Positions 1 through 58,375 of a stretch of 58,375 bases of DNA are shown here, piece after piece; position 1 is the stretch's first letter; each line of letters begins with the position of its first letter. Position numbers and translations under genes: made by a program. The notes below the pieces were generated by a model. That model was not told the DNA's origin, did not search any database, and saw only the letters and a list, made by a program, of their open reading frames with translations. Source of the DNA: a virus (lineage: Duplodnaviria; Caudoviricetes); the IMG/VR virus record IMGVR_UViG_3300011115_000472, positions 1-58,375 of that record. One strand, given 5' to 3'.

Positions 1-127
1 CAGTAGGAATGTCGTCTTCTTCGGTGACGGGATCTTCGTCTTCGTCAGAAACGCACATGCTCCCATTCCAATGGAATCCTTCTGCGCAAACAGGTTCTTC
101 CTCTTCAACAACAGGTTCTTCCTCTTC
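1..127. repeat. Terminal overlap identical to 58249-58375 (circular assembly)
   Basis: Exact 127-nt match, including ~89 nt of unique sequence; 127 is a common assembler k-mer size. Confidence 0.97.
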
Positions 128-10178: not shown

Positions 10179-10520
10179 TTATCCAACATTGCGCTCAAAA
10201 TGAGGGCAGTCCACCAGTGATTTAAAGTTGCCACCCCAGCGGTTCTTAGGGTTCAAACTTTCCCAGTAAGCCCCCAGAGGCGCAAGAATGCCCTTGTCCC
10301 ATATTATCTGCCCATCCTTGAAGAAGTTCAAGTCGATGGCGCACCGCTTCAGGTGGATTGAATTCAGGGTCTTGGAGCGGCCTGTTTTGACGTAGATGGC
10401 TTGTTGCTCGGGTGTACGGGCCAACTCCCCGCCAGTGACCACAAAACCCTGTTCCGTGGCGTACTGAATCAGCTTACAGGCATCCAGCAGAAATGCGGCT
10501 TGTTCTTGGCTGAGACTCAT
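10179..10520 (-). CDS. Endolysin, M15 family Zn peptidase
   Basis: R..EQQ, SIHLKRCAIDL and WGGNF..DCPHFE motifs (H/D/H ligands). Confidence 0.88.
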   Translation of the reverse strand: MSLSQEQAAFLLDACKLIQYATEQGFVVTGGELARTPEQQAIYVKTGRSKTLNSIHLKRCAIDLNFFKDGQIIWDKGILAPLGAYWESLNPKNRWGGNFKSLVDCPHFERNVG

Positions 10521-22818: not shown

Positions 22819-23214
22819 TTACCATCCAGAGCAGTTCCAACGCTTCAAAGAGGCTTTTGCCCTTGGTGCATCGCCCTTAGCGTGCTCCACAACTCCACTC
22901 ATTCGGGCACAAAAAGAATCTTTACGTGCGCCGCCTTGAGGTTGAGGTGCCTTGAGGTTAGAACCTGTTTCTCGATTGTACTTTTCTCTGCCTTTTTTTG
23001 TAAGTCCTGCGCCTTGTTTTACGGAAAGTTTTTCACCGCGGCCAACCGCAAGACTTACGCCGCCTTCTTTTAATTTGGCGGTTTTTGCTGACTCTCGGAA
23101 GGCTTCAGCCGTTGGCGCACCTTTGCTACCAACTCGGCGCATCTTTTCGCCAGAGCCTTCAGCAATTCTTTCGCGTTTTGCATTAAGGTTTGCATACAAG
23201 CCCTTCTTAGTCAT
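22819..23214 (-). CDS. Basic two-module protein, C-terminal half DUF6321-like
   Basis: KKGLYAN..GSGEKMR module, LKEGG linker, then GLTKKGREKYNRETGSNLKAP..SFCARM..RWNC; start reassigned to MTKKG. Confidence 0.7.
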   Translation of the reverse strand: MTKKGLYANLNAKRERIAEGSGEKMRRVGSKGAPTAEAFRESAKTAKLKEGGVSLAVGRGEKLSVKQGAGLTKKGREKYNRETGSNLKAPQPQGGARKDSFCARMSGVVEHAKGDAPRAKASLKRWNCSGW

Positions 23215-23216
23215 AT

Positions 23217-23567
23217 TTACCAATCAGAATTCTTTTTGCCCTTTGATGTTGTAGAAACACCGCAAGCATTGAGATTGATTTTTCCACCAGTGGTATAGCT
23301 TTTTTTAACTTCTCCACCTTTTTTATACATTGTTGGGTTTGGGTTGCCACCACCGCCACCAAGTGCGCTTTGGGCCGTACCAATAGCCGATCCCACAGTA
23401 GCGGCACCAGAATTGATTTGTCCCAATCCGTCTTGCGCGCTACCGCCTCCACCGCCTAAACCTTTGCCACCAATTGGGCCTGAAGGCATTTGAGGTGTGT
23501 CAGTAGGACGTGGTGCATCGCCATTAGCAGGCGTCATCATTGACCCAAGTTGTGCTATTGATGCCAT
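23217..23567 (-). CDS. Gly-rich GG-motif protein
   Basis: 116 aa; YKKGG and YTTGG; RBS AAGGA. Confidence 0.75.
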   Translation of the reverse strand: MASIAQLGSMMTPANGDAPRPTDTPQMPSGPIGGKGLGGGGGSAQDGLGQINSGAATVGSAIGTAQSALGGGGGNPNPTMYKKGGEVKKSYTTGGKINLNACGVSTTSKGKKNSDW

Positions 23568-23577
23568 AATTTTTCCT

Positions 23578-24015
23578 TTACCAGTTAGACTTTACTTTTC
23601 CGCCATCTTTAAATGGCGCAACTTTGCCCTTGCCAATTTTTTCTGACCACTCTTTGCGATGACTCGCGGCCTTGTCGGATGCGCCACTTTTTTCAGCATG
23701 TTCAGTAAAATTGCGCAGTCGGTTTGACTCACCGCGGCGTTGCAAACGGCCCAATTGCTTTTCAGACTCTGCAGTTTTCCCAGAGGCTTTTGCAATGTCA
23801 AACATTTTGCGATTGGCAGTTAGTTTATTTACAAGTTGTTTGCTTTTGTGTTGTTGCGTGCGAGTCATTCGACTAGCAGTGTCATCGCCATCATCGTCCT
23901 CATTACCACGAGGGTCGCCAATAGCTTTGTAATAATCCACATCACTGTCGTAGTCCATTGGATTTGTGGACATTGCACGTCCACCCATGGCTTTTTTAGA
24001 TTTGATGTGTGTCAT
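23578..24015 (-). CDS. Basic GG-motif protein
   Basis: Start reassigned to MTHIKSKKAMGG; FKDGG near the C-terminus. Confidence 0.75.
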   Translation of the reverse strand: MTHIKSKKAMGGRAMSTNPMDYDSDVDYYKAIGDPRGNEDDDGDDTASRMTRTQQHKSKQLVNKLTANRKMFDIAKASGKTAESEKQLGRLQRRGESNRLRNFTEHAEKSGASDKAASHRKEWSEKIGKGKVAPFKDGGKVKSNW

Positions 24016-24017
24016 GA

Positions 24018-24422
24018 TTAGTTGTACCCTTTGGTCATCTCCAATATGCACCAGTAAGTGTCGCCTGAAGATGCGTCAGCCGTGCTAAAAACAATATTGC
24101 CAGTAACGCCAGCCCCGCCGTTGTTGGTGATACCGCCAAAAGCGCTCATGTCAAGTGTCTGCGTAGCAGTGGGAGATGAAAGAAAGAACGGCACATCCGT
24201 TGTAGCGTCCCAAAACATTCTGACTTCCATGCCATGATTGGAAATGTAGATTTTGGTAACCGTTACTCTGGTACAAGTTTGCCCAGAAGCGCTAGGGGTT
24301 AACGCAGAAACGTCTACCTTCAAAACCGCACTTTCACCAGTGCCATCACTGATGTTTGTAAATTTCATAATGACCGTGCGCTCACCATCAATAAGCGTTT
24401 GGCTCGTAACTGCATCAGCCAT
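24018..24422 (-). CDS. Conserved virion protein
   Basis: MADAVTSQTLIDGERTVIMKFTNISDGTGE; RBS GGAG. Confidence 0.75.
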   Translation of the reverse strand: MADAVTSQTLIDGERTVIMKFTNISDGTGESAVLKVDVSALTPSASGQTCTRVTVTKIYISNHGMEVRMFWDATTDVPFFLSSPTATQTLDMSAFGGITNNGGAGVTGNIVFSTADASSGDTYWCILEMTKGYN

Positions 24423-24434
24423 ATTTTTCTCCAA

Positions 24435-24460
24435 TTAAAAGCAGGGGCCGAAGCCCCTAC
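24435..24460 (-). terminator. Rho-independent terminator-like hairpin (UUCG loop)
   Basis: GTAGGGGC-TTCG-GCCCCTGC followed by TTTTAATT. Confidence 0.75.
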
Positions 24461-24465
24461 TCAGT

Positions 24466-25794
24466 TCAGCACATTGCTCTTCCGCCGCTCCGTTTAGGCG
24501 CTACAGTAACTGATTTTTCAGTTTTTGTAACGCTACCCGCTGGTGCTGGCTTGCTAGTAAAGTAATCCTTCATCTTTTGATAACCCTCTTTGGCCATACT
24601 CAAAGGATTCAGCGCCTCTTCAAGCTCACGGCTTGCTTTGTCTGTAATCACTTTGGGATCGCCAGATGGGGTAACACGAGATTCATTTTCATACTTTTTT
24701 GCTTCGCCACCATTTTGGTAACGGTTTAATTGACCCTTTGCGGTGTCATGCGCGTCTCCTTTGTCATCCGTGTGGTAGTCGGCATCTTTGTAATGCTTAC
24801 CCTCTGGATCAAAGAATTTGACTCGATGCTCACCGTAATCTACGTCTTTATAAACCTTGGCAACGTGACCCTTCGGGCCTGTATGGGTCTTCAATAAACG
24901 CAAAGGAGTGGAACCTCCCCAAGTGCTGGTTCCACCCTTAGCCTTTTTTGAGACTTCTCCGCCATCCTTAAAGGTGCCAGATTGCATGCTGTTTGCCACA
25001 GGGCGGCTGACAGGTTTCTTCGGCATCGCGACGGGTTTGCCTGTATCAACAGTTCCCCCCGTCGCGTAGGCTTTTTTTGTTGAACCACCCATCTTGTAGC
25101 CGCCGCCGTTGGCTTTTTTTACGCCACCAGTGGTGGTGTTGGTCACGCCGGGTTTGGCCGTATCAGCAGGGCGGTTTTCCCAATTGACGTTTCCGCCATC
25201 TTTAAAACCCGCGCCGTTACCCATTCTGACGCCACCAGTGCCGCCTTTGGCTTTAGAACCATGTTCAGCGGTTCCTATGTCACCATTTAAATACTTGCCT
25301 GCGTTGCCTTTGATAGTGCCGCCGTTGGCATAGCCACCTGCATTACCCATCTTGACATCGCCAGTACCTTTTTTAGACTTGGAGCCGTGTTCAGCAGTTC
25401 CCATGTCACCATTTAAATACTTGCCAGCATTGCCCTTGACAGTAGTTTTTGCCATGGATGCAGTAACACCGCCGCCATCAGCAAACTTCTTACCAGCCAT
25501 AGCCTTCTTGATCATTTTGCGATCTTGAGCGGCGTCGTCATGCATTTCAGCTTTGCCACCTTTTTTGGCCATCATCATAGGGTTCATCGCTTTACGACGA
25601 GCCATCATTGACGGACGCTTAGGTGCCATGCCCATTGGGGCACTTGCCATTGCTGGTGCTTGAGCAGGCATAGTGGACTGCATAGGCATGTAACCGCCGT
25701 CTGCTTTTTTCTCAACTTTGCCGCCCTTTTTAAGCTTCAGAATTACTGAAGGCTCCGTGGTCATCATTTTGACCATTGGTTTAAATTGACCCAT
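24466..25794 (-). CDS. Lys/Gly/Met-rich protein with at least 12 xxxGG motifs and one embedded globular module
   Basis: Start MGQFKPMVKM with RBS AAGGAG; 442 aa. Confidence 0.8.
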   Translation of the reverse strand: MGQFKPMVKMMTTEPSVILKLKKGGKVEKKADGGYMPMQSTMPAQAPAMASAPMGMAPKRPSMMARRKAMNPMMMAKKGGKAEMHDDAAQDRKMIKKAMAGKKFADGGGVTASMAKTTVKGNAGKYLNGDMGTAEHGSKSKKGTGDVKMGNAGGYANGGTIKGNAGKYLNGDIGTAEHGSKAKGGTGGVRMGNGAGFKDGGNVNWENRPADTAKPGVTNTTTGGVKKANGGGYKMGGSTKKAYATGGTVDTGKPVAMPKKPVSRPVANSMQSGTFKDGGEVSKKAKGGTSTWGGSTPLRLLKTHTGPKGHVAKVYKDVDYGEHRVKFFDPEGKHYKDADYHTDDKGDAHDTAKGQLNRYQNGGEAKKYENESRVTPSGDPKVITDKASRELEEALNPLSMAKEGYQKMKDYFTSKPAPAGSVTKTEKSVTVAPKRSGGRAMC

Positions 25795-25804
25795 GTTGTT
25801 CTCC

Positions 25805-26782
25805 TTATGCTTGTGTGACGCCAAGAGCGCCAGCACGGGTTGCATTCGGGCCTGCCGCAATTGCTGGCAGGGCTATTCCCATCACAAGACGCTTGATACC
25901 GTCACAAGCAGACGAGGGCAAATAAGTACCCCTCACATCACCAGTGGTTGTGGTTGCTGTGGCGGTAGCGGCAACAGTCATAGTTCCAGCATCTTCAGCC
26001 AAAGTATTGTCCCAACCAGCGCGGGTAACGTAGCCTCTATCAATGATACGCAATGGTGCGCCCAAGATGTCAGTTGTACCTACCGCAACAGTTACCACAC
26101 TTCCGCCAGATGCAGTAACACTAGCAATTTGGTAAAAGGCTTTCTTACCACTGACAGTAGTAGACGCCACTATTCCTGTTGCAATTACCTCGCTCATGGC
26201 TTGACCGTAGTAGTCGTAACCAGAAACAGTAATGTTGACAGAAGTCGGAGTGCCAGCACCAGTGGTTGTAGAAACCGCACGAGGGCAATCAAGTTGCAAG
26301 CCTGTTGCACCACCAGTAATGGTTGTTGATGTAACACCAGCACCTGCGGCAAGCGTGAGCGTGGTAGCAGTTGTGATAACAGCGGCAACAATGTTGGTTG
26401 TCACTTTTGCTTGTGGTACAGCGTCCCAAATATAAACGCGCCCTAATGGGCCAACGCCTACGCTCATTGGAGATGGGTTTTGCAAAAAAGCATTACCAGA
26501 ACCAACGATGGTGGAGCTTGCTACAGTTTGTGAGGCGCTTACGGTGTAAGTGCCTGTACCGCCAGAACCCGTACCAAAAGCGGTAATGTAGGTTCCATTG
26601 GTAAGTGAAGTTGAACTGTCAATAAACATACCCACAGTAATTGGGTCACCCGAAAGCATCGCGGTAACGGTCAATGTAGTGGTAGCAATTGAACCAGTAA
26701 AAGTTGCAACAGCAGGGTATTGATCTGTACCCTGAGTCGTAATAGCAGTACCTAAAAATAGGTCGTCGGAAAATTGAGGCAT
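25805..26782 (-). CDS. Capsid decoration/minor virion protein
   Basis: Start [11 protein letters not shown] with RBS AAGGAG; follows the MCP; Thr-rich. Confidence 0.7.
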
Positions 26783-26813
26783 TTGATCTTCTCCTTGAAA
26801 AGCTTGATCAGTT

Positions 26814-26845
26814 AAAAAAAAGGGCTGGCTTTTTAGACCAGCCCT
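26814..26845 (-). terminator. Rho-independent terminator after the major capsid gene
   Basis: AGGGCTGG-TCTAAAAAG-CCAGCCCT followed by a T-run. Confidence 0.85.
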
Positions 26846-26852
26846 GTTTGCT

Positions 26853-27767
26853 TTAGACGCCAGCAGTGCCGTAAACGGCACGCGGGTCAGTGAAGCCAAC
26901 TGTATAACGCTCCGTAGCCTTGTAACGCATGGAGTCGGTTTCAAAGTCACCTTCCATGGTTTTCTCAAGACGACGACGCATCAACAATTTCAACCCTTCT
27001 GGGGCGTCAGTCTGCACCCAAAATGCAGTAGATGAGGTCAAGCGACTGATAACAGCGGCACCTTCGTCCAACAAGCCAATTGACTTGACGGGGTTGATGT
27101 CGTTGTTTGCATTACCAGTACGCAAAACGCTCTTTAACAACACTTCGGCTTGGAAAATATTGCCGGGTGCCACAATCAATTGACGTGGAACCAAACGAAT
27201 TTTCTTACCGTTGTTGTCAACTGCTTGACGGACTTGAATCAGCATTTGCTCTAGTGAAGTCTGCGACAAGTTAGCGGCAGTTGCCAACTGGTTGCTAAAC
27301 GTACCATTCACAATTGGGTGAGCAGTGTTGACCAAAGAAACGCCATCGCCACCGGGGAAGCTAGAGTTAAACGCAGTGTTCAGCACGTTAGCCGACAACA
27401 GTTCTTTGGTTTCCACCAAAGACTGTGCCAAATGGCGCGCATAAACTTGACCGATACGAATATGGTCACCGTCTTCAACAAGCACTTTGGTCAAAGCGAA
27501 GGCCAAGCCATACACTCGGTACACATAGCGTTGCAAGAAGAGTACGCCACCTTGCTGATAGGTCACCGGGGTGCCATCGGGCAATTGGGGCGCGGCTCCA
27601 AATCCATAAAGGACGGGCTCTTCGTGATAGTTACGGGGAATGCCGTCTTCTTCGCGGAACACACGGCTCCACTCGTCGGCTCTTTGGTCATAGACTCCGT
27701 CAAAACACTCGTTGAGAATTGGCTCAACGATGGAACGGAAGTCCGTACTTCGCATTGGTGCGGCCAT
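26853..27767 (-). CDS. Major capsid protein
   Basis: 304 aa; GDGVSL..AHP, LIVAP, DFET...[12 protein letters not shown]; after the scaffold, followed by a terminator. Confidence 0.88.
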
Positions 27768-27780
27768 AGTAATTTACTCC

Positions 27781-28413
27781 TTAAACGACAGCAGTAGTTG
27801 CCGCAACAAATTGCACATATGGCAATGTTACGCGAACAATCACGTATGCATCACCCCAGTTGTTGTCCACATATGGTGCAATATCAACAACGCGCATTTG
27901 ACCTTGAGCACCGTTCGTTTGAGCGGATGCAACAGCCAAAGTTGCTTGCGACAAACCAGTGGTTGTGGAACCAGCGGTAATGTTGCTGAAGTTGTACTCG
28001 TTACCAATTGAGGTTTGAGCCAAAGTACCATCACCTTGAATTTCATAAACGATGTTTTGGTCGTTGTAAAAATAAGCGATGCAGGAACCCGTTTGGAATG
28101 CGGTACCACTTGGCCAATAATTGGATATGCGACGACGGCCCGTGGTATCAGTCCACTCAGTACCAGCAAATGCACCTGCGACTTGATAGCCAGAAGATGC
28201 GGCGCTGTTACCGGGGGTACCCGCTGGGATGATAGTGCCGTTGGCGGCACCAGTAGCACCGACTGTGGCGGCGGTTGTATATACAACAGGCTGACCCTTC
28301 AAAATATTGACGGCCAAACCTGACGTGATACCGTTAGCAAGCGCCTGAGCACGATCCAGACCAGAGGGATGGAACGCAGGACGCAAGCCAAACGGAGCAG
28401 AGGTAGAACTCAT
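27781..28413 (-). CDS. Head decoration/cement-like protein
   Basis: APFGLRP start; immediately upstream of the MCP. Confidence 0.65.
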   Translation of the reverse strand: MSSTSAPFGLRPAFHPSGLDRAQALANGITSGLAVNILKGQPVVYTTAATVGATGAANGTIIPAGTPGNSAASSGYQVAGAFAGTEWTDTTGRRRISNYWPSGTAFQTGSCIAYFYNDQNIVYEIQGDGTLAQTSIGNEYNFSNITAGSTTTGLSQATLAVASAQTNGAQGQMRVVDIAPYVDNNWGDAYVIVRVTLPYVQFVAATTAVV

Positions 28414-28433
28414 GAAAACTCCTTAGTTAAAGA

Positions 28434-28979
28434 TTACCCAGAAAAAACTGGGACTTTGCTTGGTTGCTGATCAAAAGAGCCAAGACCTTCGCCTTCAACA
28501 TTTACTAGCGACTTGCCATTGCTATCTCTTTGCCCTTGAAGATTTTCGATCTGAACGCGAACTTTGTCGCTTTCCTCACGAGGTTTATCATGGTGGTGAT
28601 ACAACATGAGATCCTGATAAATATCCATTGGCAATTTAAATAGCAACATTTCGTTGCAGGAAATATGCCCAATATGCTCTCCAGATTTGACTCGATAGTC
28701 TTCATAGCCCGGTAACTCTTCAGATTTAACTGGAACGTACCCATTGCGTATCCGCTTATCGATTGAATCGTAGCTATTGGTTGTCGAAAGCCAGCAAAGG
28801 TGCCACCCATCTAAATTGGGCAGTTTCGGCAATGCTGATTGCGTCCATTCCTCGTCCCACATCTTGCGACGTTCTTGCGTAGAAATGAACTTTGTCTCTG
28901 GGGCTGAACGGGTTGCGTCCTCACTTGCGCGATCATCGCGTCCACCAGCTTTGAGAGATTTTTTTAAACGTGAATCCAT
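28434..28979 (-). CDS. Conserved head-module hypothetical protein
   Basis: 181 aa; GWHLCW..GYVPVK..LLFKLP. Confidence 0.75.
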   Translation of the reverse strand: MDSRLKKSLKAGGRDDRASEDATRSAPETKFISTQERRKMWDEEWTQSALPKLPNLDGWHLCWLSTTNSYDSIDKRIRNGYVPVKSEELPGYEDYRVKSGEHIGHISCNEMLLFKLPMDIYQDLMLYHHHDKPREESDKVRVQIENLQGQRDSNGKSLVNVEGEGLGSFDQQPSKVPVFSG

Positions 28980-28996
28980 GTTAGTTGCTCCAAGTA

Positions 28997-29971
28997 TTAG
29001 TTACGGGTTTGGTTCTGACGATCATATTTTCTGAATTCGTCAATCATTCGCTTCTTGCGGTCTGGGTTATCCCATGCGCCTACTTCCTTCATCGCCTTAA
29101 CCCTTTCAGGAGAAAGAATGAATTGAGAACTGTTACGTCCTCCGTATGCCGCCGAAGCTTCACGACCTGAACTTCCCACAACGTTCCTCGGTTTTCTAAC
29201 AGCAAAATCGCCGTTCGATGTTTGATTGTAACGGTGTGGCAATGATTTTTGCAAGCGGCTGTCAAGTTCATCCCAATAATCGGGATCAGAAGGATTCCAT
29301 CCCTCTGTAACCAACAGTTCGTCCACCTTCTTTGCAACTTTGCTATCACTGTCACTTGCGTCTGGGTTATACCAAGAATTGCGCTTCATCCAATCCGCCG
29401 CATTACGCTGAACAGTTGGATTAGGCATCTCTTGATGAGCAGGTGCTTGCGCTTCTTGCGATGCGCGGTGCTTCATTCCCTGCAATTTGTTGATTTGATC
29501 TTCAGCTTGACGCCATAACGTCTGGGCTTCGACCATTGCTTCGCCGTCACTGTTATCCGCGGCCTCTTTAAGCTTCATTTTGGCGTATTCCAAGCGTACT
29601 TGGCTGTCCTCAATGTTCTTGTCGATGCGCGAGATCTGACCTTGCTTGGTTTCACGCTCAACATTTGACAAGCGGCGCTTAAATTCTTCGTTTTCGCGCT
29701 GTAGAACTTGCAAACGAACGTCTTTTTCCTTGTTTTCAGCCCTAAAAGCTTGTCTTTTGGCCTTACGACGGTTGCGTTTGGCCTCTCTAAGCTCTTGATC
29801 GTCGTCTGGATGGTCTAGATCCTCACGATCTAAGCCCTCATTGTCTGCTTTAGCAGGCGGATTTTGGTCAAGATCGTCATCAATCATGCTTTCTGGTAAA
29901 TCGACAACTGCGGAGCCGTCTTTTTCCTCTTGCACCATTAATTCAATCTTTTCTTTGGTATCTGTGCTCAT
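28997..29971 (-). CDS. Capsid scaffolding protein
   Basis: Acidic N-terminus, long coiled coil, NSWY..DYWDELDSRL; between portal and MCP. Confidence 0.72.
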   Translation of the reverse strand: MSTDTKEKIELMVQEEKDGSAVVDLPESMIDDDLDQNPPAKADNEGLDREDLDHPDDDQELREAKRNRRKAKRQAFRAENKEKDVRLQVLQRENEEFKRRLSNVERETKQGQISRIDKNIEDSQVRLEYAKMKLKEAADNSDGEAMVEAQTLWRQAEDQINKLQGMKHRASQEAQAPAHQEMPNPTVQRNAADWMKRNSWYNPDASDSDSKVAKKVDELLVTEGWNPSDPDYWDELDSRLQKSLPHRYNQTSNGDFAVRKPRNVVGSSGREASAAYGGRNSSQFILSPERVKAMKEVGAWDNPDRKKRMIDEFRKYDRQNQTRN

Positions 29972-29981
29972 TTTTTATCCC

Positions 29982-30437
29982 TTAAACATAGGCTTTGAAC
30001 GACAACGGATCGTCAGTGATTTTTGCTATCACCTCGTGATCATTAATCGTCATGAATAACACTTGGTCTTCGTTAGATTCCTCGCTAGGAACATTGCGCT
30101 CCCAACGATCGCCGCCCCATCGAGGTACACGAACAAAATCTCCAACCTGTGCCCAAGTTCCCTCTGGCCAAGACTCCATGGTTTCACGGTTCTTGTACGC
30201 CAAAGGCCCAAGTGCCACGACCCTACCGATCATGTTGTTCCACTTTTCGTTTTCTTTGGTTTCATCCACGATGATGATCATTCCAGCCTTCTTTTTGATG
30301 CGACGTAATTGAACTATCACGCGCCCTCCAAGAGGTGCCTGCCCCGGATTTACATCAGGGAACGCCCATGCCAACTCTTGAGGATTAGACGCTTGCGCGC
30401 TTCCCCCGATCGTTGGGATCTTTTCTCTTTCACTCAT
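29982..30437 (-). CDS. GroES-like co-chaperonin
   Basis: PLGGRVIV..GMIII..GRVVALGP..VGDFV..INDHEVIAKI matches the Cpn10 pattern. Confidence 0.85.
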   Translation of the reverse strand: MSEREKIPTIGGSAQASNPQELAWAFPDVNPGQAPLGGRVIVQLRRIKKKAGMIIIVDETKENEKWNNMIGRVVALGPLAYKNRETMESWPEGTWAQVGDFVRVPRWGGDRWERNVPSEESNEDQVLFMTINDHEVIAKITDDPLSFKAYV

Positions 30438-30515
30438 ACTAACTCCTAAAACACACCATATTTCAGGTGCAACATTTAAGCGCTTTTCAGCGCGGCCTCA
30501 GTCCTTTAGGGGGAC

Positions 30516-30695
30516 TTATTCTTGATTCTTTTCTTCGTCTAACATTCTGTTAATGGAGTCAAGGACATATTGAATTCCTTGATTCTCACCAACCATGCGT
30601 TGGTACGCTTCCCACGTATTTGCGTTGCCATTAGCAAGAGATAAGGCGATCTCTCCTTGTCGCAACCTGATTACGTGCAATATTGCTCCAATCAT
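30516..30695 (-). CDS. Small hypothetical protein (59 aa)
   Basis: MIGAILHVIRLRQGEIALSLANGNANTWEAYQRMVG...; ATGA overlap; below the track cutoff. Confidence 0.75.
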   Translation of the reverse strand: MIGAILHVIRLRQGEIALSLANGNANTWEAYQRMVGENQGIQYVLDSINRMLDEEKNQE

Positions 30696-30850
30696 TTTTT
30701 CTTTGCTTGTGACAAACCGCCAACAGGCTTCTTGGAATTGTTACTTCCGCCTTTGGGTTGCATTGCGGTGCCATCAAGTTTTTCGCCCATGGCGATGCGC
30801 TTGTGTTGTGGCACGTTGATGGTTCTTTGTTCGTATTCACTGGTTGACAT
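30692..30850 (-). CDS. Small basic protein (52 aa)
   Basis: MSTSEYEQRTINVPQHKRIAMGEKL...; RBS GGAG. Confidence 0.65.
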   Translation of the reverse strand: MSTSEYEQRTINVPQHKRIAMGEKLDGTAMQPKGGSNNSKKPVGGLSQAKKK

Positions 30851-30851
30851 T

Positions 30852-33353
30852 TCATACTCCTTGGGGTCGAGGCATTGGCTCGGGTGGTGGTGGTGGCGCT
30901 GACATCGCAGGCGGTGCCTTTGGTGCGGGTGGTAGCGCAGGGGGTTGTTGTGGAGTTGCCGCCACATCATTCGCATGTTGAATCGTTTCGTGAGTCAACT
31001 TTGAATTTTCGATATCAATCTTGGTTTGATTGTCCATTGCATGCTTCTGGATGTCAGCTTGCAATTTGGCTTGATCGTATTGGATATCCGATTGGTCTTT
31101 TTGCGTCTTGCGTTGAGTTTCAGCCATACTCGTATCGTGGACGACTTGTGCATCAGGCGGCAATGTTTGCTTGGCTTGTTGTTGACGTTTCTGAGCTTGC
31201 TGAATCAATTGCTGGAATGCAGGCGCAAACTGTTGGAACGTATCTTGTACATCTAAGTTTACATGGGCACCAACCGTTGCATACAACTGGTCAATCGTTG
31301 CCGTCAGCCTTGGATCATCATAGTTATCCACAGGTTTTCCACCGCGGGTTTGAGCCACATAACCATTAGAACGGTTCAAGTACCACAACGTCATGTGTTG
31401 CTTGATGTGCTCGATTAAATGGTTGAGGTAACTTGGATCTGCAAATGGCGACTGGCCCAAGAATGGGTTTAAGCCAAATTGCAAGTGATCCTGAATGTGC
31501 GCAATGTGATCTTGTTGCATGTACGCATACGCAGGCTGGCCAATCAGCATGGCCGCGTTTTCATCAGCAGAGGTGCGTTGTTCAGGCGCAGGCACGTCCT
31601 TCATCAATTCATTGATGTTGGGCACCTTCATTTGCTTGAGTGAGCGAGACAACACAGCGCCCATGTTGAACTGGTCAGGGTGCTTTTCCGCCAACTGCAT
31701 CACAGCCTGCATCTGAGCCATGCGTTGTGTCTCAGAGAAGATGTGCGGGTCAGACACTGGCACAACATCCGTGTTCTTGGCAAAGTCTTGGCGATTGATA
31801 TCCAAGTCAGCCACCACATCAGACTTGCGCATCTCGTCAAAGTGCCAACGGTTCAATCGGCAAAGAATTCGCAAAACGCGTGCTTGGCTTTCGTGCAGTC
31901 GCGCATGAATAGCGCTAAACACCGCGGCCCCTTGTTCAATCAGAGCCTGCGTGGTGCCCACAGGAGCCTGTGCAGACACGTCAGCGATCTTTTCTTCGCT
32001 CGTGGTCACTACCCCCTTAGCCGCGGTATCAAGCCAGCCTAGGAGCTTAAATAAGACCTCGCTGGGTGGGTTGAACGGCATGGGCATGGCGATCTGTCGG
32101 ATATCGGAAACGCCGGGTGCGCCTTCGATCTCCACAATCTGCGTCACTTCCACTTGCTGGCTCTGGCCGCTGATCTTTGCTCCCTTGAGCTTTAGCATCG
32201 TGGCCGCGTTGTTAATGTGAGCCGAATCCATCAAGGCGCGCAAAGCACCCGTCAAAGCCGCACTGAGTCCACCAATCAAGTGGGGGAGGCCAATTGCATA
32301 TGCACCACGCCACGGGATAAATTTAAACTCCACAATCCAATCTAACTTGGTCATCGTGTCGTCTGTCTCTTCCCAATTGCGATACAGGCCAATAACCTCG
32401 TTGTCCAACTCGTCAATCATCAGGATGTACGGAGCCATCTCGCCTTTGCTGTACTCGTCCTCTTCCAATTCCAAGAACGTGTAGATGTGATACACCTTGC
32501 GCAGGCCATCGCTGTTGTCTTCGTACTTCTTGCCTTCAATCTTGTCGTTGGCTTTTTGCGCCTTGGTTGGCTCGACTTCCGTCGTTGCCTTTACTAGCGT
32601 AACGTCACGGTACATGCCAGTGGAAATACGACGATTGAACTCCCAGTGCGTGATCTCGTGCATTTCAGCGGCACGCTCTGCGGTGTAGAAGTTACTGGCC
32701 GCAAATGGCAGGATCACACGGTCGATTGGCAAGAACTCCACGCATGGGCGCTTCTTCTGCTCGTCAAACCATAATTTAAAGTATTGCGATCCACCTAAAG
32801 GCAATTGCGTCAGCATCTGCTCTTGCTCGTCACGGAACTCTTGTATCTGCTCCGTAATCTGCCAGTTCAAATAGTCACGCTTGCGCTCAGCACGATCAGC
32901 TTTAACGTCGTCCATCTTGCCCAAGATTTTTGTACGTACAGGGCCATCAGGTGGAAACATCTCTTTGATTGCACGAGCGGCAAAGTCAACACAGCCCTCA
33001 GCCATGGCCGGGTGCACAACTTTGCTGGCACCCATAAACGTTGCACCACCGGGGGCGTCGTTGCCCATACCAGTGCGCTTGATGCCCTCTTCGTATTGTT
33101 TGTCACGCTGTTCGCGTGCATCCTTATCGCTCTTTAGCAAATCGATATAACGACCCGACATCGACGTCAATTCCATAGGGTCATACGACTCTGCCATGTT
33201 GGCGTAGAAATCTGGATTGACTTCGGGGCCATCATCCTCAACAGTAACAATGGCACTGCCGTCAGGCTGTTCTTCCGTCTGCATCTCAGGCAGATCTACA
33301 ACCGCGCTACCGTCTTCGTTTTCAGTAATCTGTGGGTCTAATTCATCCATCAT
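30852..33353 (-). CDS. Portal protein (P22-like)
   Basis: 833 aa; GASKVVHP, LPLGGSQYFK, FIPWRGAYAIGL, PVGTTQALIEQG; Gln-rich C-terminal barrel. Confidence 0.88.
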   Translation of the reverse strand: MMDELDPQITENEDGSAVVDLPEMQTEEQPDGSAIVTVEDDGPEVNPDFYANMAESYDPMELTSMSGRYIDLLKSDKDAREQRDKQYEEGIKRTGMGNDAPGGATFMGASKVVHPAMAEGCVDFAARAIKEMFPPDGPVRTKILGKMDDVKADRAERKRDYLNWQITEQIQEFRDEQEQMLTQLPLGGSQYFKLWFDEQKKRPCVEFLPIDRVILPFAASNFYTAERAAEMHEITHWEFNRRISTGMYRDVTLVKATTEVEPTKAQKANDKIEGKKYEDNSDGLRKVYHIYTFLELEEDEYSKGEMAPYILMIDELDNEVIGLYRNWEETDDTMTKLDWIVEFKFIPWRGAYAIGLPHLIGGLSAALTGALRALMDSAHINNAATMLKLKGAKISGQSQQVEVTQIVEIEGAPGVSDIRQIAMPMPFNPPSEVLFKLLGWLDTAAKGVVTTSEEKIADVSAQAPVGTTQALIEQGAAVFSAIHARLHESQARVLRILCRLNRWHFDEMRKSDVVADLDINRQDFAKNTDVVPVSDPHIFSETQRMAQMQAVMQLAEKHPDQFNMGAVLSRSLKQMKVPNINELMKDVPAPEQRTSADENAAMLIGQPAYAYMQQDHIAHIQDHLQFGLNPFLGQSPFADPSYLNHLIEHIKQHMTLWYLNRSNGYVAQTRGGKPVDNYDDPRLTATIDQLYATVGAHVNLDVQDTFQQFAPAFQQLIQQAQKRQQQAKQTLPPDAQVVHDTSMAETQRKTQKDQSDIQYDQAKLQADIQKHAMDNQTKIDIENSKLTHETIQHANDVAATPQQPPALPPAPKAPPAMSAPPPPPEPMPRPQGV

Positions 33354-36300
33354 TTAGCCTTCTTTGATTTGCGGCTTAATTCTAAGTTCATGATATCCAT
33401 ATTTGTGGATAGGTTCACTTTGCCGCCTTTTTTGTAGCCCAAGCGCTTCTTCATTGCAAGCTCGTATTCGCCCATCTGATTGATGTATTGCTCATCGATT
33501 GGCTCACGAATAATGTTCATCTTCGCTTGGTTGAACGGAACAACTTTCTTGCCCATCCGCGCAATCTCTTGTCTAGCATTGTGCATTGAACGTGGTGCCA
33601 AAATATCAGCAGGCGTAGTGTAACGAGTACGTCCCACTAATTTTGATGGTATGTCGTGACCATACGTCGGGTGAGGGGAAATGCTTTCCTTCAAGCTACG
33701 GTTTGGATCAAATTTAATGATTGACGATCCGCCTGCACCAGTCTCAATGTCGCGCAACTCAGGATGGCTAATTGCATAGATGATGTCATCTAGCTTTTGC
33801 TTACCGCCAGCCATGTACTTCTCTTTGCCCAGCATGCTAATAATCTTCTTGCGCATGCCTGAATTAAATGGCGCTTGCAATCTAATGTCCGACGGATTTT
33901 CAAAACCGGGAAAGTCAGGATAGGGCTTGTCATTCTTGTTGGTAGTCAACTTTACATTGCGCATTAAATGGTTGAGTTGCTCAATCTGCTCTTTAGGCAA
34001 CTTGTGCGGCTGATGGTGCGCTAACACTGAGTCCAGCATATGCACTGCGTGATACAACGCCTCTGGTGACATCTTGTGGTAGTGGCCATAGACATCCATC
34101 TCAGGATTATCTTTGGCCAAACGCTTCACAACGTTAAACATACCGCGGCTGGCACCCAAGTCACTTGCCCAGCCAGCAGGATGGCCATAGGCACCATAGT
34201 CTTTGCCACCGTACAAACCAACGGGTTGCTCCAAAGTTTCAAAGCCAATTGATTTAAGGTACTCGCCTGCTTCAGGTGAGTCCATGTTTGAATTGTTGGT
34301 GGGCATTACACCACCGCGGCTTGTGTCACCGGGTACGCCTACTGAGTACGAACCCTTCAGGTTTCCGTAATCAATAATTGGCGTCTCATTCTTCTTTGAG
34401 CTTTCAATTCCAACTTGCAAATCTTTCTCACGCGCCATCTGTTGCAGTGTCTTGCCCGTTGGGTTTTCTTGCCCCGACACTTGACGCGCCATACGCTCAG
34501 CATGCGCCTCAATGTCCGCCTTGCTTAATGTTGGCGATGGGCCGTAGTACAGGGGCTTCTTTGGCTTAGCAGACCCACCCTTGGCATACACCTCACGCTT
34601 GCCGTACTTGGGCTTCTTGGCCAGCACCAACGGGCCAATCTGCACCACATGTTCAGCATGGGTGATGGGCTCCATCGTCTCGCGGTCATAGAAGTCACCA
34701 TGACGGCGTGGGTCGTAGCCCACCTGACGATAATCAGGGTGATTAAAATACTTCTGAAAATGCTTGACAGCCTGATCTTCAGTCATGTGCTCGAGATCAC
34801 CCATGATCTTGGCAAATGGCGCTTTGTTCTGCTCACCAGTAGCCACGCGAACCGCTTTGTGTGGCGAGCCTTGAAACTCAGCATTGCGCACTGAGGAGAC
34901 GGGGCCGTAGGACGTTGCAAGTTTTTTCTCGCCGCCTGACTCATCATGTATTGAATTTACCCACACGCCATGATCTTCATATGCCGGGATGTCCAACCGC
35001 AGTCCTACGCGGTGGCCAGCAGGCCATGACTCATGACCACGCCATTTTGCTTTCTTCGGCTCATGTAGTGCGCGCATTGCGTCTTTATCAGTGGCAGGCT
35101 TGGGAATGAACTCATAAGGCTTGACGGGCTTTTCTTTGGCCACAACCTTGGCATACGCCTTTTGCTTCATGTCGCCTTCCATCAAAGCACGAGCCGCGGC
35201 TTCAATCTTTGGGTTACGACGTGATGCCTTGTCATCAAACACGGTAGGGCGCACCTCAACTTTAGGCGGTTGTCCACCATCTTTTAACAAGTTGATGTCA
35301 TTGATGTCAAATGGCGCATTGTTGTCAGGCATCCAAGATGAAGACACCGAACCACCATCAGCCATTTGAGGCGGCGCTTTGGGTGGCGTCATGGCGTTCA
35401 TAGCCTGCCCTTGTGGCGTCATCTGTAAGATGTTGCTTGGCGCTTGCTGAGGAGGCGCTCCACCACCCAATGGGGAAGGCATGCCCTGTTGCTCTGCGCC
35501 CTGCGGTGGCTGGCCTTCAGGCGGTTGCTTGGGCACCAAGCTCTGAGGTAGCAACTGATCGCCAGTCTGTTGTGGGCTCATGTCAACACCGCCAACTGGC
35601 ATTGGAGTGCCATCATTCTTGGGCGGCAGATATTCCTTGACATTCATGTTGGGAGCTTCCATAGCCCCGATCTTTGTCATATCTGAAAGTGATGTGGGCC
35701 TTTTGGTGGCCAACTCAGCGCGCATTTCATTGACTGATGGCACAGCACCGCCAACCGCCTTCTTGATCACATTGGGCGTCAATGGGTGCATCTTTTTGCC
35801 AGTCTTCTCTTGCACGTAGTAAGCGTTGTGGCCAGCCTTGCGCATGCCCTGCTGGACGCGGGGGTCTTCCAAATACTTGTGGTTACCCGCTGACAGCATC
35901 TCGCCCATGTGCTTGTGCACGTCAGGGATCTTGTTAAAGTCTTTGTGCTTGGAAATGTGGCCAGCAACATTGGTGACGTGCTCAGGGTTCTCATAGTCGA
36001 ATGGGTTCACATCGCCTCCTTCAGCGTATCCGCGCATGGCTTTAATAATGTCATTGTGCGTTGTTTGATTATTACCCGAAGCATCCCATACTGCATGGTG
36101 TGCCAAGTGTTGGTAGTGCGGTTGCATGGCCGGGTCTATCTTTAGATTCATGGCCGACTGCCTTGACGCTAATCGATCCACGGCTTCACGAGCCCCTTGA
36201 CCTTTGCCTCGATTCATGATAGAGCCAATGCCAACATTTGCAGGCAATGAATGCAGATTTAATTGGCGCGCATCGAGCGTCGGCAAATCACCGCGGCCAA

Positions 36301-36943
36301 GCATCGATCCAATGAAGCCAGACTTCGCCCCGGCCACACCCTTCATCTTCTCCGCAAAATCGCGGTAGTCATCCTTCGACCCGGTAATCGCTTGGTTTAG
36401 GTTCTGCGACATGGCAGGCATGTTCTGCGCCGCATAGATCATCTGGTCTGTCAATTGATTGTGCTTGCCAAACGGCGAGAATTTCTGTCGCACGTCATTG
36501 AGTGCAGGCTGATGCACCATACCGCGCTCTGCCGCGTTCAAATAGCTCTGCCCCATGGGTGACCCCAGCCACTCAGCAAAGGCCCCTTCTGGCCTCACCT
36601 CGTCGCCCGTGTTGGGGAGCTTCATGCCAGTCTTGGTGGCCGTAGCATGAGACAACCCACCGCGGCCAATGCTCGATTGAGTGATGGTGAATGCCTTCAG
36701 CAAGTCTCGTGTGGTCAGCCCTGCCGCCTGTGCTCGGGCCAATTGCTGGTTCATGAACTCGCCATAGTTCTTTTGAACGTAGTCGGGCACCTCGATGATA
36801 GGCATGTCCTTGCGGACGTCCTGCATCTTGCGCCACTTCCAATCTTCGATCTTTGTCGTCTTAGGATCGCGGTACTTAGAGACGTCGCCACCACCCTTCA
36901 TCAGCTCAAGGCGCATCCTGTCCATGTCTATTGGTGTTTCCAC
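33350..36943 (-). CDS. Large modular (polyvalent-type) protein, ~1197 aa, with an HhH-GPD-like module and GG-motif linkers
   Basis: Long ORF between terL and portal; probable GTG start at 36943 (track start 37003). Confidence 0.8.
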   Translation of the reverse strand: METPIDMDRMRLELMKGGGDVSKYRDPKTTKIEDWKWRKMQDVRKDMPIIEVPDYVQKNYGEFMNQQLARAQAAGLTTRDLLKAFTITQSSIGRGGLSHATATKTGMKLPNTGDEVRPEGAFAEWLGSPMGQSYLNAAERGMVHQPALNDVRQKFSPFGKHNQLTDQMIYAAQNMPAMSQNLNQAITGSKDDYRDFAEKMKGVAGAKSGFIGSMLGRGDLPTLDARQLNLHSLPANVGIGSIMNRGKGQGAREAVDRLASRQSAMNLKIDPAMQPHYQHLAHHAVWDASGNNQTTHNDIIKAMRGYAEGGDVNPFDYENPEHVTNVAGHISKHKDFNKIPDVHKHMGEMLSAGNHKYLEDPRVQQGMRKAGHNAYYVQEKTGKKMHPLTPNVIKKAVGGAVPSVNEMRAELATKRPTSLSDMTKIGAMEAPNMNVKEYLPPKNDGTPMPVGGVDMSPQQTGDQLLPQSLVPKQPPEGQPPQGAEQQGMPSPLGGGAPPQQAPSNILQMTPQGQAMNAMTPPKAPPQMADGGSVSSSWMPDNNAPFDINDINLLKDGGQPPKVEVRPTVFDDKASRRNPKIEAAARALMEGDMKQKAYAKVVAKEKPVKPYEFIPKPATDKDAMRALHEPKKAKWRGHESWPAGHRVGLRLDIPAYEDHGVWVNSIHDESGGEKKLATSYGPVSSVRNAEFQGSPHKAVRVATGEQNKAPFAKIMGDLEHMTEDQAVKHFQKYFNHPDYRQVGYDPRRHGDFYDRETMEPITHAEHVVQIGPLVLAKKPKYGKREVYAKGGSAKPKKPLYYGPSPTLSKADIEAHAERMARQVSGQENPTGKTLQQMAREKDLQVGIESSKKNETPIIDYGNLKGSYSVGVPGDTSRGGVMPTNNSNMDSPEAGEYLKSIGFETLEQPVGLYGGKDYGAYGHPAGWASDLGASRGMFNVVKRLAKDNPEMDVYGHYHKMSPEALYHAVHMLDSVLAHHQPHKLPKEQIEQLNHLMRNVKLTTNKNDKPYPDFPGFENPSDIRLQAPFNSGMRKKIISMLGKEKYMAGGKQKLDDIIYAISHPELRDIETGAGGSSIIKFDPNRSLKESISPHPTYGHDIPSKLVGRTRYTTPADILAPRSMHNARQEIARMGKKVVPFNQAKMNIIREPIDEQYINQMGEYELAMKKRLGYKKGGKVNLSTNMDIMNLELSRKSKKAK

Positions 36944-54369: not shown

Positions 54370-54379
54370 TACCTACCCC

Positions 54380-55972: not shown

Positions 55973-55985
55973 GATTTTTTCCTTT

Positions 55986-57230: not shown

Positions 57231-57232
57231 TT

Positions 57233-58248: not shown

Positions 58249-58375
58249 CAGTAGGAATGTCGTCTTCTTCGGTGACGGGATCTTCGTCTTCGTCAGAAAC
58301 GCACATGCTCCCATTCCAATGGAATCCTTCTGCGCAAACAGGTTCTTCCTCTTCAACAACAGGTTCTTCCTCTTC
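58249..58375. repeat. Terminal overlap identical to 1-127
   Basis: Exact match to the window start. Confidence 0.97.

Follow-up and report, generated by a model that had tools for sequence, protein, structure and literature searches.

The window, the whole stretch of DNA analysed, is a complete podovirus genome of 58,375 bp in which a short double-glycine motif recurs in an accessory set made up of a mosaic polyvalent protein whose gene lies between those for terminase and portal, a 442-aa disordered protein rich in lysine and glycine, and several small basic proteins (Table 1). The motif was refined to the seven residues Phi-[A/K]-x-G-G-x-[V/A/I], with Phi being Y, F, M, L, or K. Pentapeptides listed in an earlier note on this DNA are all present at the genes it named, including MKGGG, YAEGG, KAVGG, MADGG, LKDGG, YAKGG, and YKKGG in the 1197-aa protein, two copies each in the 145-aa (KAMGG, FKDGG) and 116-aa (YKKGG, YTTGG) proteins, and one in the 131-aa protein (LKEGG). 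The at least 12 copies counted in the 442-aa protein comprise 11 strict matches and three looser ones (AKKGG, YQNGG, KRSGG). The description of the motif as genome-wide was too broad, as only five or six proteins carry it, and the MAKGG assigned to a giant protein lies in the context SMAKGGLPS, which fits that protein's own P-x-x-G-G-L-P repeat and not this motif.

Table 1. Motif-bearing proteins, their modules and motif sites, and neighboring head proteins in the window.
Feature	Position	Strand	Remarks
131-aa fusion of basic N-module (phrog_16028) and DUF6321	22819..23214	-	PHROG and Pfam matches
LKEGGVS, joint of the 131-aa fusion	23053..23073	-	
116-aa Gly-rich small protein	23217..23567	-	double motif YKKGGEV..YTTGGKI; ends in W
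YKKGGEV and YTTGGKI (116-aa)	23307..23327, 23277..23297	-	
145-aa small protein	23578..24015	-	2 motifs; ends FKDGGKVKSNW
FKDGGKV (145-aa)	23593..23613	-	
KAMGGRA (145-aa)	23974..23994	-	
442-aa Lys/Gly-rich, mostly disordered protein	24466..25794	-	11 strict and 3 looser motifs
KRSGGRA (looser), residue 434 of 442	24475..24495	-	4 residues ahead of C-terminal Cys
YQNGGEA (looser), residue 359 of 442	24700..24720	-	C-terminal edge of folded module
Sole confidently folded module of 442-aa protein, residues about 298-360	24715..24903	-	motif-flanked; pLDDT 82-93
KAKGGTS, residue 284 of 442	24925..24945	-	
FKDGGEV, residue 275 of 442	24952..24972	-	
Double motif YKMGGSTKKAYATGGTV, residues 233-249 of 442	25048..25098	-	common to the 116-aa protein (23217-23567), E = 0.007
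KANGGGY, residue 227 of 442	25096..25116	-	
FKDGGNV, residue 197 of 442	25186..25206	-	
KAKGGTG, residue 181 of 442	25234..25254	-	
YANGGTI, residue 155 of 442	25312..25332	-	
FADGGGV, residue 104 of 442	25465..25485	-	
AKKGGKA (looser), residue 76 of 442	25549..25569	-	
KADGGYM, residue 30 of 442	25687..25707	-	
LKKGGKV, residue 21 of 442	25714..25734	-	
181-aa conserved head-core protein	28434..28979	-	
LKAGGRD (marginal), N-terminal in 181-aa protein	28935..28955	-	
324-aa scaffold-like protein	28997..29971	-	motif absent in this genome
1197-aa mosaic 'polyvalent' protein	33350..36943	-	ORF; 7 motifs; between large terminase and portal
C-terminal tail NLSTNMDIMNLELSRKSKKAK of 1197-aa protein	33353..33415	-	conserved, form ..DTMxLELxRKxKKAK; directly after YKKGGKV
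YKKGGKV, residue 1170	33416..33436	-	end of module D
YAKGGSA, residue 786	34568..34588	-	boundary of modules C/D
LKDGGQP, residue 553	35267..35287	-	start of module C
Universal core, residues 392-535	35339..35770	-	delimited by KAVGG and MADGG; nearly all of 65 relatives match it
MADGGSV, residue 527	35345..35365	-	end of universal core
KAVGGAV, residue 395	35741..35761	-	boundary of module B and core
YAEGGDV, residue 306	36008..36028	-	boundary of modules A/B
MKGGGDV, residue 15 of 1197	36881..36901	-	

Enrichment was assessed against 2000 residue shuffles within each protein, so that glycine and lysine content was matched, and conservation was counted in orthologue groups from 80 related viral contigs. 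In this comparison, which the earlier note had proposed, the 442-aa protein has 11 motifs versus a mean of 0.76 expected and the 1197-aa protein has seven versus 0.40, counts reached in none of the 2000 shuffles, and the 145-aa protein has two versus 0.05 (P = 0.002). Single copies are not significant by the shuffle test alone (P = 0.14, 0.18, and 0.03 for the 131-aa, 116-aa, and 181-aa proteins). GG sites are preceded by [YFMLK][AK]x at 21 of 42 positions in five motif-bearing client proteins versus 3 of 116 in everything else the genome encodes (odds ratio 37.7, P = 9e-12), with zero motif matches in its portal, capsid protein, and terminase, as had been reported. Orthologues carry 697 motifs versus 41.9 expected in the 442-aa family, 323 versus 27.0 for the protein upstream of portal, 40 versus 1.0 in the 145-aa family, and 69 versus 9.3 in the 131-aa family, and the strict motif occurs in 12 of 41 scaffold-like orthologues versus 0.7 expected. 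Control groups are at or near expectation, including portal (1 versus 2.7), capsid (0 versus 2.5), cement-like (0 versus 2.6), GroES-like (0 versus 1.0), adaptor-like (5 versus 2.6), and a 534-aa tail protein (2 versus 10.3).

Constraint extends to both sides of the glycines. The second residue after GG, which was not part of the original pattern definition, is V, A, or I in 74% of 1089 instances in relatives (1.6 bits), and the positions three and two before GG carry 2.3 and 2.3 bits. Proline is depleted (0.1% just before and 1.7% just after GG versus a background of 6.2%), lysine is enriched around the motif, and tandem motifs 8-10 residues apart are common (145 of the pairs counted). Glycine codons at the motif vary among GGC, GGT, GGA, and GGG, with GGA depleted at the first glycine (30 of 903), and this variety indicates selection on protein and not on DNA. 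The client proteins are otherwise unrelated, as first proposed, with an 18-residue double-motif stretch as their best pairwise match (E = 0.007). On this sequence evidence, the heptad is a true short linear motif that selection maintains at the protein level, and accessory proteins from the head-gene cluster of a freshwater podovirus clade have it as their common joint and tail element.

The 442-aa protein has 562 relatives in IMG/VR, with 8-13 motif copies per relative, while in the phage record collection the only match covering more than 14% of it is a metagenomic genome, with no cultured member found. In the AF2 model, 318 of 442 residues have pLDDT < 50 and all 11 strict copies fall in predicted disorder; the folded module matches phrog_7884 and hypothetical proteins of Pseudomonas phages. 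An alignment of 24 family sequences has a mean column identity of 44% and keeps seven GG pairs invariant. Lysine makes up 14% of this protein and 13% of the 131-aa and 145-aa proteins. Of 66 members of the 442-aa family, 61 have their final motif 0-5 residues short of the C-terminus; in the 145-aa family the distance is 4-9 residues in 19 of 20 members, and an alignment of 16 sequences shows conservation of the C-terminal tag. Beyond the final GG, the chains finish in short conserved caps whose last residue is a conserved Cys or Trp.

Pelagiphage HTVC168P and cyanophage KBS-P-1A encode the two halves of the 131-aa protein as individual genes, and the fusion is also split in many relatives, exactly at the motif. 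Most relatives of the 181-aa protein read L[NS]AGG at the LKAGGRD site, which is outside the strict motif, and its AF2 model (pLDDT 65) has no significant PDB fold match. Many more scaffold-like orthologues carry K/R-x-[ED]-GG-[ED]-V in an acidic N-terminal region. Caulobacter phage RW shares this head core, with 77% identity in the capsid protein, and its genome encodes none of the motif proteins.

Residues 385-560 of the 1197-aa protein match 175 database proteins at E <= 1e-5, and motif sites coincide with the ends of its homology blocks, at residues 306, 395, 531, 557, and 790. Mosaicism is strong among the 66 proteins encoded upstream of portal, whose junctions fall at motifs, and the C-terminal tail is kept across big proteins with differing modules. 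Relatives in the same genome slot carry LPD23, ASCH, PcfJ, GDSL lipase, and GP88 domains, and comparison of sequences places the 1197-aa protein in a mosaic polyvalent-protein family. It resembles polyvalent proteins (Iyer et al. 2017, PMC5512222), described in the available text as large multi-module proteins beside terminase and portal genes, extremely mosaic among relatives, and thought to be packaged and injected. Repertoire domains in relatives include LPD23 (PF18838), ASCH, PcfJ, and a precomputed PF18760 match; unlike polyvalent proteins, the window's copy has no Pfam domain above threshold and no processing peptidase. The available text of PMC5512222 contains neither 'linker' nor 'glycine', and a junction motif extending to separate small proteins is therefore apparently undescribed in that text.

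Of the homology breakpoints, 22.7% fall no more than 5 residues from a motif, versus 4.3% at random. Together with the fused protein that is split in relatives and the predicted disorder, this bears out the earlier placement of motifs between modules, and the motif marks module boundaries in these comparisons. It could be a flexible hinge or module delimiter with no dedicated reader, by which modules, whether they fold independently or are unfolded, would be linked in one chain, exchanged among phages, and passed through the portal and tail channel, a role comparable to that of the short motifs that mark constant/variable junctions in polymorphic toxins. The mosaic junctions upstream of portal, the flexibility conferred by GG, the predicted disorder, and the lack of any reader found all suit a hinge. 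This explanation is nonetheless rather improbable, as a passive linker leaves unexplained the conserved -3, -2, and +2 residues around GG, seven invariant GG pairs in a family of 44% mean column identity, 8-13 copies in a protein with one folded module, and motifs at extreme C-termini where there is nothing to link. Conservation for DNA-level recombination is opposed by the glycine codon variety.

The same junctions could be proteolytic sites, with polyproteins cut after or near GG in the procapsid or post-ejection, modules released, and caps removed by an unrecognised phage protease or a host-supplied enzyme. This reading is unlikely, if better placed than a passive hinge. It would account for modules that are separate in relatives and fused exactly at the motif here, for breakpoints coinciding with motifs in what is predicted to be accessible disorder, and for proline depletion beside GG. 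Ubiquitin-like proteins have precursor caps, which the terminal Cys/Trp caps recall, and the motif occurs in the scaffold-like protein of many relatives, scaffolds being frequent targets of proteases. Also counting for cleavage is the proposal, in the available text of PMC5512222, that polyvalent proteins are processed by peptidase domains of their own. Against it, no processing protease was recognised in the complete genome, in line with the earlier remark that no prohead protease was recognisable: a peptidase domain search found only an M15 cell-wall peptidase, along with a sub-threshold S49 match on a 112-aa early ORF. HExxH is present in just 6 of 66 big proteins and absent from the 1197-aa protein, and none of the genes common to two motif-bearing genomes and absent from RW is protease-like. 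Many motifs lie 0-9 residues from the C-terminus, and cutting there would therefore release almost nothing useful.

Known GG-specific proteases offer a limited parallel. Adenovirus protease sites, (M/I/L)-X-G-G↓X, occur in core proteins, and C39 peptidases cut double-glycine leaders; both resemble the motif in having a hydrophobic residue and then GG in several internal virion proteins or precursors. The register differs, however, from adenain and C39 sites: the hydrophobic residue is one position farther from GG, five and not four before the putative cut, so the comparison with C39 leaders in the earlier note does not hold. Neither tandem sites 8-10 residues apart nor a conserved second residue after GG is expected of these enzymes, and searches of the genome found no peptidase of clan CE or C39.

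The lysine-rich clients and lysine enrichment around the motif would also fit binding to a non-capsid partner, either packaged DNA, in the way that an AT-hook-like motif of basic internal proteins condenses it, or the host chaperonin GroEL, through mimicry of the GroES mobile loop; both are very improbable. Some sites have the form K-A-x-G-G-[IVM]-[IV], resembling the GroES mobile loop and the loop-equivalent stretch of a GroES-like protein that the phage itself encodes. Most sites, however, have a single hydrophobic residue after GG versus three in the GroES loop, and acidic residues in or around many cores (YAEGGDV, or KAEGGEV in DHPDD-rich sequence) disfavor DNA binding.

The most likely mechanism, tentatively favored here, is a multivalent capsid-loading (docking) tag with a putative reader in the head core. 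Each cargo module would bear a tag on its C-terminal side, inside a flexible segment, and a conserved component of the procapsid interior (the scaffold-like protein, capsid protein, or portal) would bind it. Unrelated, freely exchangeable modules could thereby be co-packaged and later ejected with the DNA, with several tag copies per chain adding avidity. The motif-bearing proteins are probably packaged into the head and would be present in the virion. Supporting a tag are the enrichment and conservation across orthologue groups with controls near expectation, the selection acting on protein, the constraint on both sides of GG, the terminal placement of the last motif, typical of loading peptides, the multivalency in 442-aa relatives and tandem pairs, and the predicted disorder around all strict copies in the 442-aa protein. 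One and the same core is found both in basic surroundings and in the very acidic N-terminus of the scaffold-like protein, which argues that the core is recognised rather than charge. RW has the head core without the motif proteins, and the set is therefore an add-on, which would have to rely on a conserved feature of that core. Precedent comes from the argument, in the available text of PMC5512222, that phage polyvalent proteins are packaged into heads.

Several points count against a tag. Fusion and fission exactly at the motif and short caps after the last GG suit a processing site equally, and internal copies distant from termini are atypical of known loading peptides. A retention tag is also odd on a scaffold-like protein, given that scaffold protein normally leaves the capsid.

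Short shared peptides load unrelated cargo in other systems. The T4 capsid targeting sequence directs unrelated proteins to the prohead, from which they are later injected; this signal is present once, at the N-terminus, and the prohead protease gp21 cuts it off at L/I-x-E, whereas the motif is many-copy and tends to be C-terminal, in a genome with no recognised protease. Encapsulin shells and phage capsid proteins belong to one fold family, and the cargo-loading peptides of encapsulins are short, contain glycine and spaced hydrophobics, often lie C-terminally in a disordered linker, and are common to unrelated cargo. The motif may be likened to them as a short glycine peptide on unrelated cargo in a disordered context, although its sequence differs, it is also internal and highly repeated, and capsid binding here is putative. 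The carboxysome organiser CsoS2 is basic, largely disordered, and has many copies of a short motif, and the 442-aa protein, though unrelated in sequence, could be likened to such a multivalent scaffold with putative shell binding.

The heptad Phi-[A/K]-x-G-G-x-[V/A/I], in which Phi is Y, F, M, L or K, recurs in five proteins of the head region of the window, here called clients, of 1197, 442, 145, 131 and 116 aa. Every pentapeptide given in the earlier note was found in the sequence, and only MAKGG of the giant protein had to be withdrawn as an instance, being part of SMAKGGLPS, which fits that protein's own P-x-x-G-G-L-P repeat. When the strict pattern [YFMLK][AK]xGG was counted against within-protein shuffles that kept Gly and Lys content, the motif stood above expectation in the 442-aa protein (11 copies against a shuffle mean of 0.76), the 1197-aa protein (7 against 0.40), with none of 2000 shuffles equalling either count, and the 145-aa protein (2 against 0.05, P = 0.002). 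The same shuffles give no significance to the single copies in the 131-aa and 116-aa proteins and the 181-aa head-core protein, taken alone. Half of the clients' GG sites (21 of 42) have the upstream context, compared with 3 of 116 in all other proteins of the genome (P = 9e-12), and these two tests, shuffled and GG-conditioned, rule out a composition artefact of Gly/Lys-rich proteins.

The enrichment extends to relatives in the IMG/VR collection, where the 442-aa protein has at least 562. Among 25 loci listed, these relatives carry 8-13 copies each (one split ORF pair has 9 + 3), and the motif is also found there in the small proteins and in the protein upstream of the portal. Family-wide counts are given in the table below, and they agree with the earlier statement that the motif is missing from the capsid and portal proteins of the window.

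Genes of the head region, with motif counts in the corresponding families or orthologue groups and the counts expected from shuffles
Protein	Position	Region or basis	Motifs observed	Motifs expected
Large terminase	37031-38461	head region
1197-aa protein (counts: orthologue group of the protein upstream of portal)	33350-36943	head region	323	27.0
Portal	30852-33353	head region	1	2.7
GroES-like protein	29982-30437	head region	0	1.0
Acidic/basic scaffold-like 324-aa protein	28997-29971	head region	12	0.7
181-aa protein	28434-28979	head region
210-aa Gly-rich protein	27781-28413	head region	0	2.6
Capsid protein (Phage_capsid_4)	26853-27767	head region	0	2.5
Thr/Gly-rich fibre-like protein	25805-26968	head region	3	5.1
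442-aa protein	24466-25794	head region	697	41.9
Small protein	24018-24434	head region
Small protein, 145 aa	23578-24015	head region	40	1.0
Small protein, 116 aa	23217-23567	head region	9	1.2
Small protein, 131 aa	22819-23214	head region	69	9.3
Adaptor-like protein	21739-22809	head region	5	2.6
534-aa tail protein			2	10.3

Because the second residue after GG is conserved (V 45%, A 17%, I 12%; 1.6 bits over 1089 instances) although it lies outside the search pattern, the motif is written as a heptad. An alignment of 24 sequences from the 442-aa family, with a mean column identity of 44%, shows no variation at seven GG pairs. Codon use at the motif glycines is varied, and GGA is under-represented at the first of them (30/903). 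This places selection on the protein rather than on a recombination sequence or one resembling a ribosome-binding site, and rules out an RNA- or DNA-level signal such as a Shine-Dalgarno-like GGAGG or a recombination site.

At 58,375 bp the window is a complete viral genome, with direct terminal repeats of 127 bp and a CheckV completeness of 100%, and nearly all of its genes lie on the minus strand. The 1197-aa gene sits between the large terminase and portal genes, and the same slot is filled in 78 of 80 related loci, the other two having no upstream ORF within the DNA examined. Its product thus has the location among portal-terminase packaging genes that characterizes polyvalent proteins. 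Mosaicism is also evident, as 66 distinct proteins of this kind, 143-1827 aa long (five cut by a contig end), contain differing subsets of modules. The 1197-aa protein itself gives only a sub-threshold Pfam match, to an L5 gp82-like family (18.8 bits, cutoff 27). Relatives that share its core carry LPD23 ("large polyvalent protein associated domain 23"), ASCH, PcfJ, GDSL lipase or GP88 domains, with at least one in all six scanned, and precomputed matches in relatives include PF18760, PF18838, PF14284, PF04266, PF17338 and PF02195. The domains of the relatives fit the polyvalent proteins of Iyer et al. (2017; PMC5512222), whose repertoire includes LPD domains, ART, ParB and methylases; that paper argues that such proteins are packaged in the head and in some cases cut by peptidase domains of their own. 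The big protein appears to belong to this known kind, and gene position together with this precedent suggests that the clients are present in the virion.

Apart from the motif, the clients show no significant similarity to one another. The best match between any two is an 18-residue double motif, Y-K-x-GG-x2-KK-x-Y-x-T-GG-x-[IV], common to the 116-aa and 442-aa proteins (E = 0.007). Trp is the last residue of the three small proteins at 22819-24015 of the window and of almost every relative (..KSCW, ..NSDW, ..CPGW), and members of the 442-aa family usually end in GG plus 1-4 residues, the last of them a Cys; these ends may be a second, terminal signal.

That the motifs fall between modules, as the earlier note held, is borne out by four lines of evidence: homology breakpoints, matches to the 1197-aa protein, the fused 131-aa protein and structure prediction. 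Across 60 distinct full-length proteins encoded upstream of the portal, 22.7% of 677 breakpoint clusters have a motif no more than 5 residues away, compared with 4.3% of random positions, with the caveat that a conserved motif may itself lengthen a BLAST match by a few residues. In the 1197-aa protein, relatives' matches start or stop at residues 301-313, 389-395, 531-538, 557-572 and 781-794, corresponding to YAEGG (306), KAVGG (395), MADGG (527), LKDGG (553) and YAKGG (786), and residues 392-535 are kept in nearly all relatives. The 131-aa protein is a fusion whose halves are separate genes in pelagiphage HTVC168P, cyanophage KBS-P-1A and many relatives. Where split, a 58-aa protein ends in ..MKxGGKMSKSCW and the alignment of a separate ~83-aa gene begins at residue 53-54, right behind LKEGG (48-52); the C-terminal half contains DUF6321 (PF19846; 59.2 bits, Pfam gathering cutoff 28.5). 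In the 442-aa protein, AF2 run with a 24-row alignment gave pLDDT below 50 for 318 of 442 residues and one confident module at residues ~298-360 (pLDDT 82-93), and all 11 strict motifs lie in low-confidence segments, with motifs on both flanks of this module.

Some of these modules recur elsewhere. The two halves of the 131-aa protein have homologs among very basic mini-proteins of 35-86 aa encoded between the scaffold and capsid genes of the T7-like marine phages HTVC168P (11894-12395) and KBS-P-1A (12028-12444), and 529 phage records, mostly from cyanophages, match DUF6321. The module of the 442-aa protein (24715-24903) matches phrog_7884 and hypothetical proteins of Pseudomonas phages, which among the ~40-kb records listed lie ~1.2-1.7 kb from the record start, perhaps an early region. 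The best PDB match to its fold, anti-CRISPR AcrF1, is not significant (E = 0.13).

The constraint on both flanks of GG, the disordered setting, the multiple copies, the frequent C-terminal placement and the occurrence in basic as well as acidic surroundings are what one expects of a functional short linear motif. A regular structural repeat is unlikely given the irregular spacing, the single copies at termini and the disorder predicted by AF2. The motif might instead be a delimiter or hinge that nothing reads, which we regard as improbable; it leaves the sequence constraint and the terminal copies unexplained.

Cleavage at the motif, one of two functions proposed in the earlier note, is a serious rival, if an unlikely one. 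Consistent with cleavage, gene fusion and fission occur exactly at the motif, short caps follow the last GG, and the motif is present in the scaffold-like proteins of relatives, yet no protease is evident in the genome. Scans of the genome ORFs with Pfam, PHROGs and NCBIfam found no prohead protease of the T4 gp21, HK97 gp4 or phiKZ gp175 types, in keeping with the first reading of the sequence, and the only two peptidase matches were an M15 cell-wall peptidase (10179-10520) and a sub-threshold S49 match on a 112-aa early ORF. Prohead-protease systems cut capsid, scaffold or portal proteins at a common consensus, and the motif is missing from the capsid and portal proteins. A zincin within the big proteins was rejected, as HExxH occurs in 6 of 66 and is absent from the 1197-aa protein of the window. 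The 181-aa protein is highly conserved (mean column identity 81% over 35 sequences), with invariant His59, Ser64, Cys107 and His128. It is not supported as a hidden protease: none of its 35 members matched a peptidase family, no PDB sequence matched it, its AF2 model (pLDDT 65) had no PDB fold match at E <= 0.001, and a viral structure library returned uncharacterized proteins only.

Adenain-type sites and C39 double-glycine leaders are cut right after GG by a cognate cysteine peptidase, their hydrophobic residue standing four positions ahead of the cut. The motif of the window differs in placing its hydrophobic residue five positions before the putative cut, and no cognate cysteine peptidase of either type was found in the genome.

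The distribution of the motif among related phages sets the client proteins apart from the head core. Caulobacter phage RW has homologs of the capsid protein (77% identity), portal, GroES-like and scaffold-like proteins and proteins like the 181-aa and 210-aa proteins, but lacks homologs of the 1197-aa protein, the 442-aa protein and the small proteins, and none of its proteins is rich in the motif. HTVC023P and CRP-901 likewise share the head core, and in all three phages the motif is absent or almost so. No gene common to the window and the motif-bearing MW202545.1 and missing from RW is protease-like. Since the clients are an addition to a conserved head core, and since no protease was apparent, we tentatively favor the motif as a multivalent capsid-loading tag that a component of that core would read. 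A complex prediction for the capsid protein monomer with the last 47 residues of the 145-aa protein scored 0.03, with the mark at 0.32, and speaks neither way on binding.

A loading tag of this kind would have a parallel in the cargo-loading peptides of encapsulins, shells with the HK97 fold, as the motif is likewise short, conserved, carried by unrelated putative cargo and disordered or terminal. Encapsulin peptides bind their shell protein on its inner face. A broader proposal is possible, if somewhat doubtful: the seven residues could be a universal address code within this clade of tailed phages, analogous to encapsulin peptides but multivalent, and perhaps linked to cleavage behind GG by an unrecognized enzyme. 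Any module could then be added to the head cargo and injected along with the DNA, and the 1197-aa, 442-aa and small basic proteins would be clients of one loading and processing system.

DNA binding or mimicry of a GroEL-binding loop is highly improbable and is kept as a lead only. The GroES-like gene, located between the portal and scaffold-like genes, is conserved in RW, HTVC023P and CRP-901. Its loop-equivalent stretch, KKKAGMIII, which we take to resemble the mobile loop of GroES, is similar to a subset of the motifs (K-A-x-GG-I-I/V).

A defined junction and tail motif common to a big protein and to separate disordered or small head-cluster proteins appears to be new. No description of it was found in the literature on capsid targeting, polyvalent proteins or cargo-loading peptides (main texts, non-subscription journals), no paper on DUF6321 was found, and neither "linker" nor "glycine" occurs in the text of PMC5512222. 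The rules by which head cargo is selected for travel and cell entry with the DNA are known in only a few model phages. A portable short tag on exchangeable effector modules would be such a rule, generally valid across a large environmental clade with at least 562 related contigs in a single viral collection. It would make cargo predictable from sequence and could be used to bring foreign proteins into capsids. Were the motif a cleavage site, it would imply an undescribed GG-specific maturation enzyme in a phage without a known prohead protease. On either reading, the junctions of polyvalent proteins in this clade follow a defined grammar.

Outside the clade, the motif is not enriched in a T4-like cyanophage structural protein with DUF6321, and T7-like pelagiphage and cyanophage homologs reach at most the near-match MLKGG. 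Two small, virion-annotated proteins of phage T7, gp6.7 (ending ..KSAFGGKK) and gp7.3 (..KKARAGGKKS..), encoded at 3-131 and 536-835 of the T7 stretch examined, have a loose likeness only. No cultured relative carrying the motif was found. Seven of 11 loci on contigs with 442-aa relatives are binned with freshwater Betaproteobacteria or Burkholderiales genomes, which hints weakly at a host in these groups.

Elsewhere in the genome, 116 bases are common to the fibre-like ORF and the 3' end of the capsid gene; translation of the former probably begins farther downstream, for a product of ~326 aa, the length found in MW202545.1. The SU10 adaptor family is matched by two proteins (9528-10166 and the adaptor-like protein of the table), with E = 1.2e-25 for the strong match and E = 4.8e-4 for the weak one. 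An SLT-domain protein with its neighbors (52630-58306) and the giant protein spanning the terminal repeat look like an ejection apparatus. The giant protein, without a Pfam family match, is encoded on the minus strand at 2-5635 and 57233-58375, with 1878 aa in the window and a continuation across the 127-bp terminal repeat. Its 1878-aa part contains seven P-x-x-G-G-L-P repeats, of which SMAKGGLPS in the continuation would make an eighth, and EEEEPVV repeats lie near the junction.
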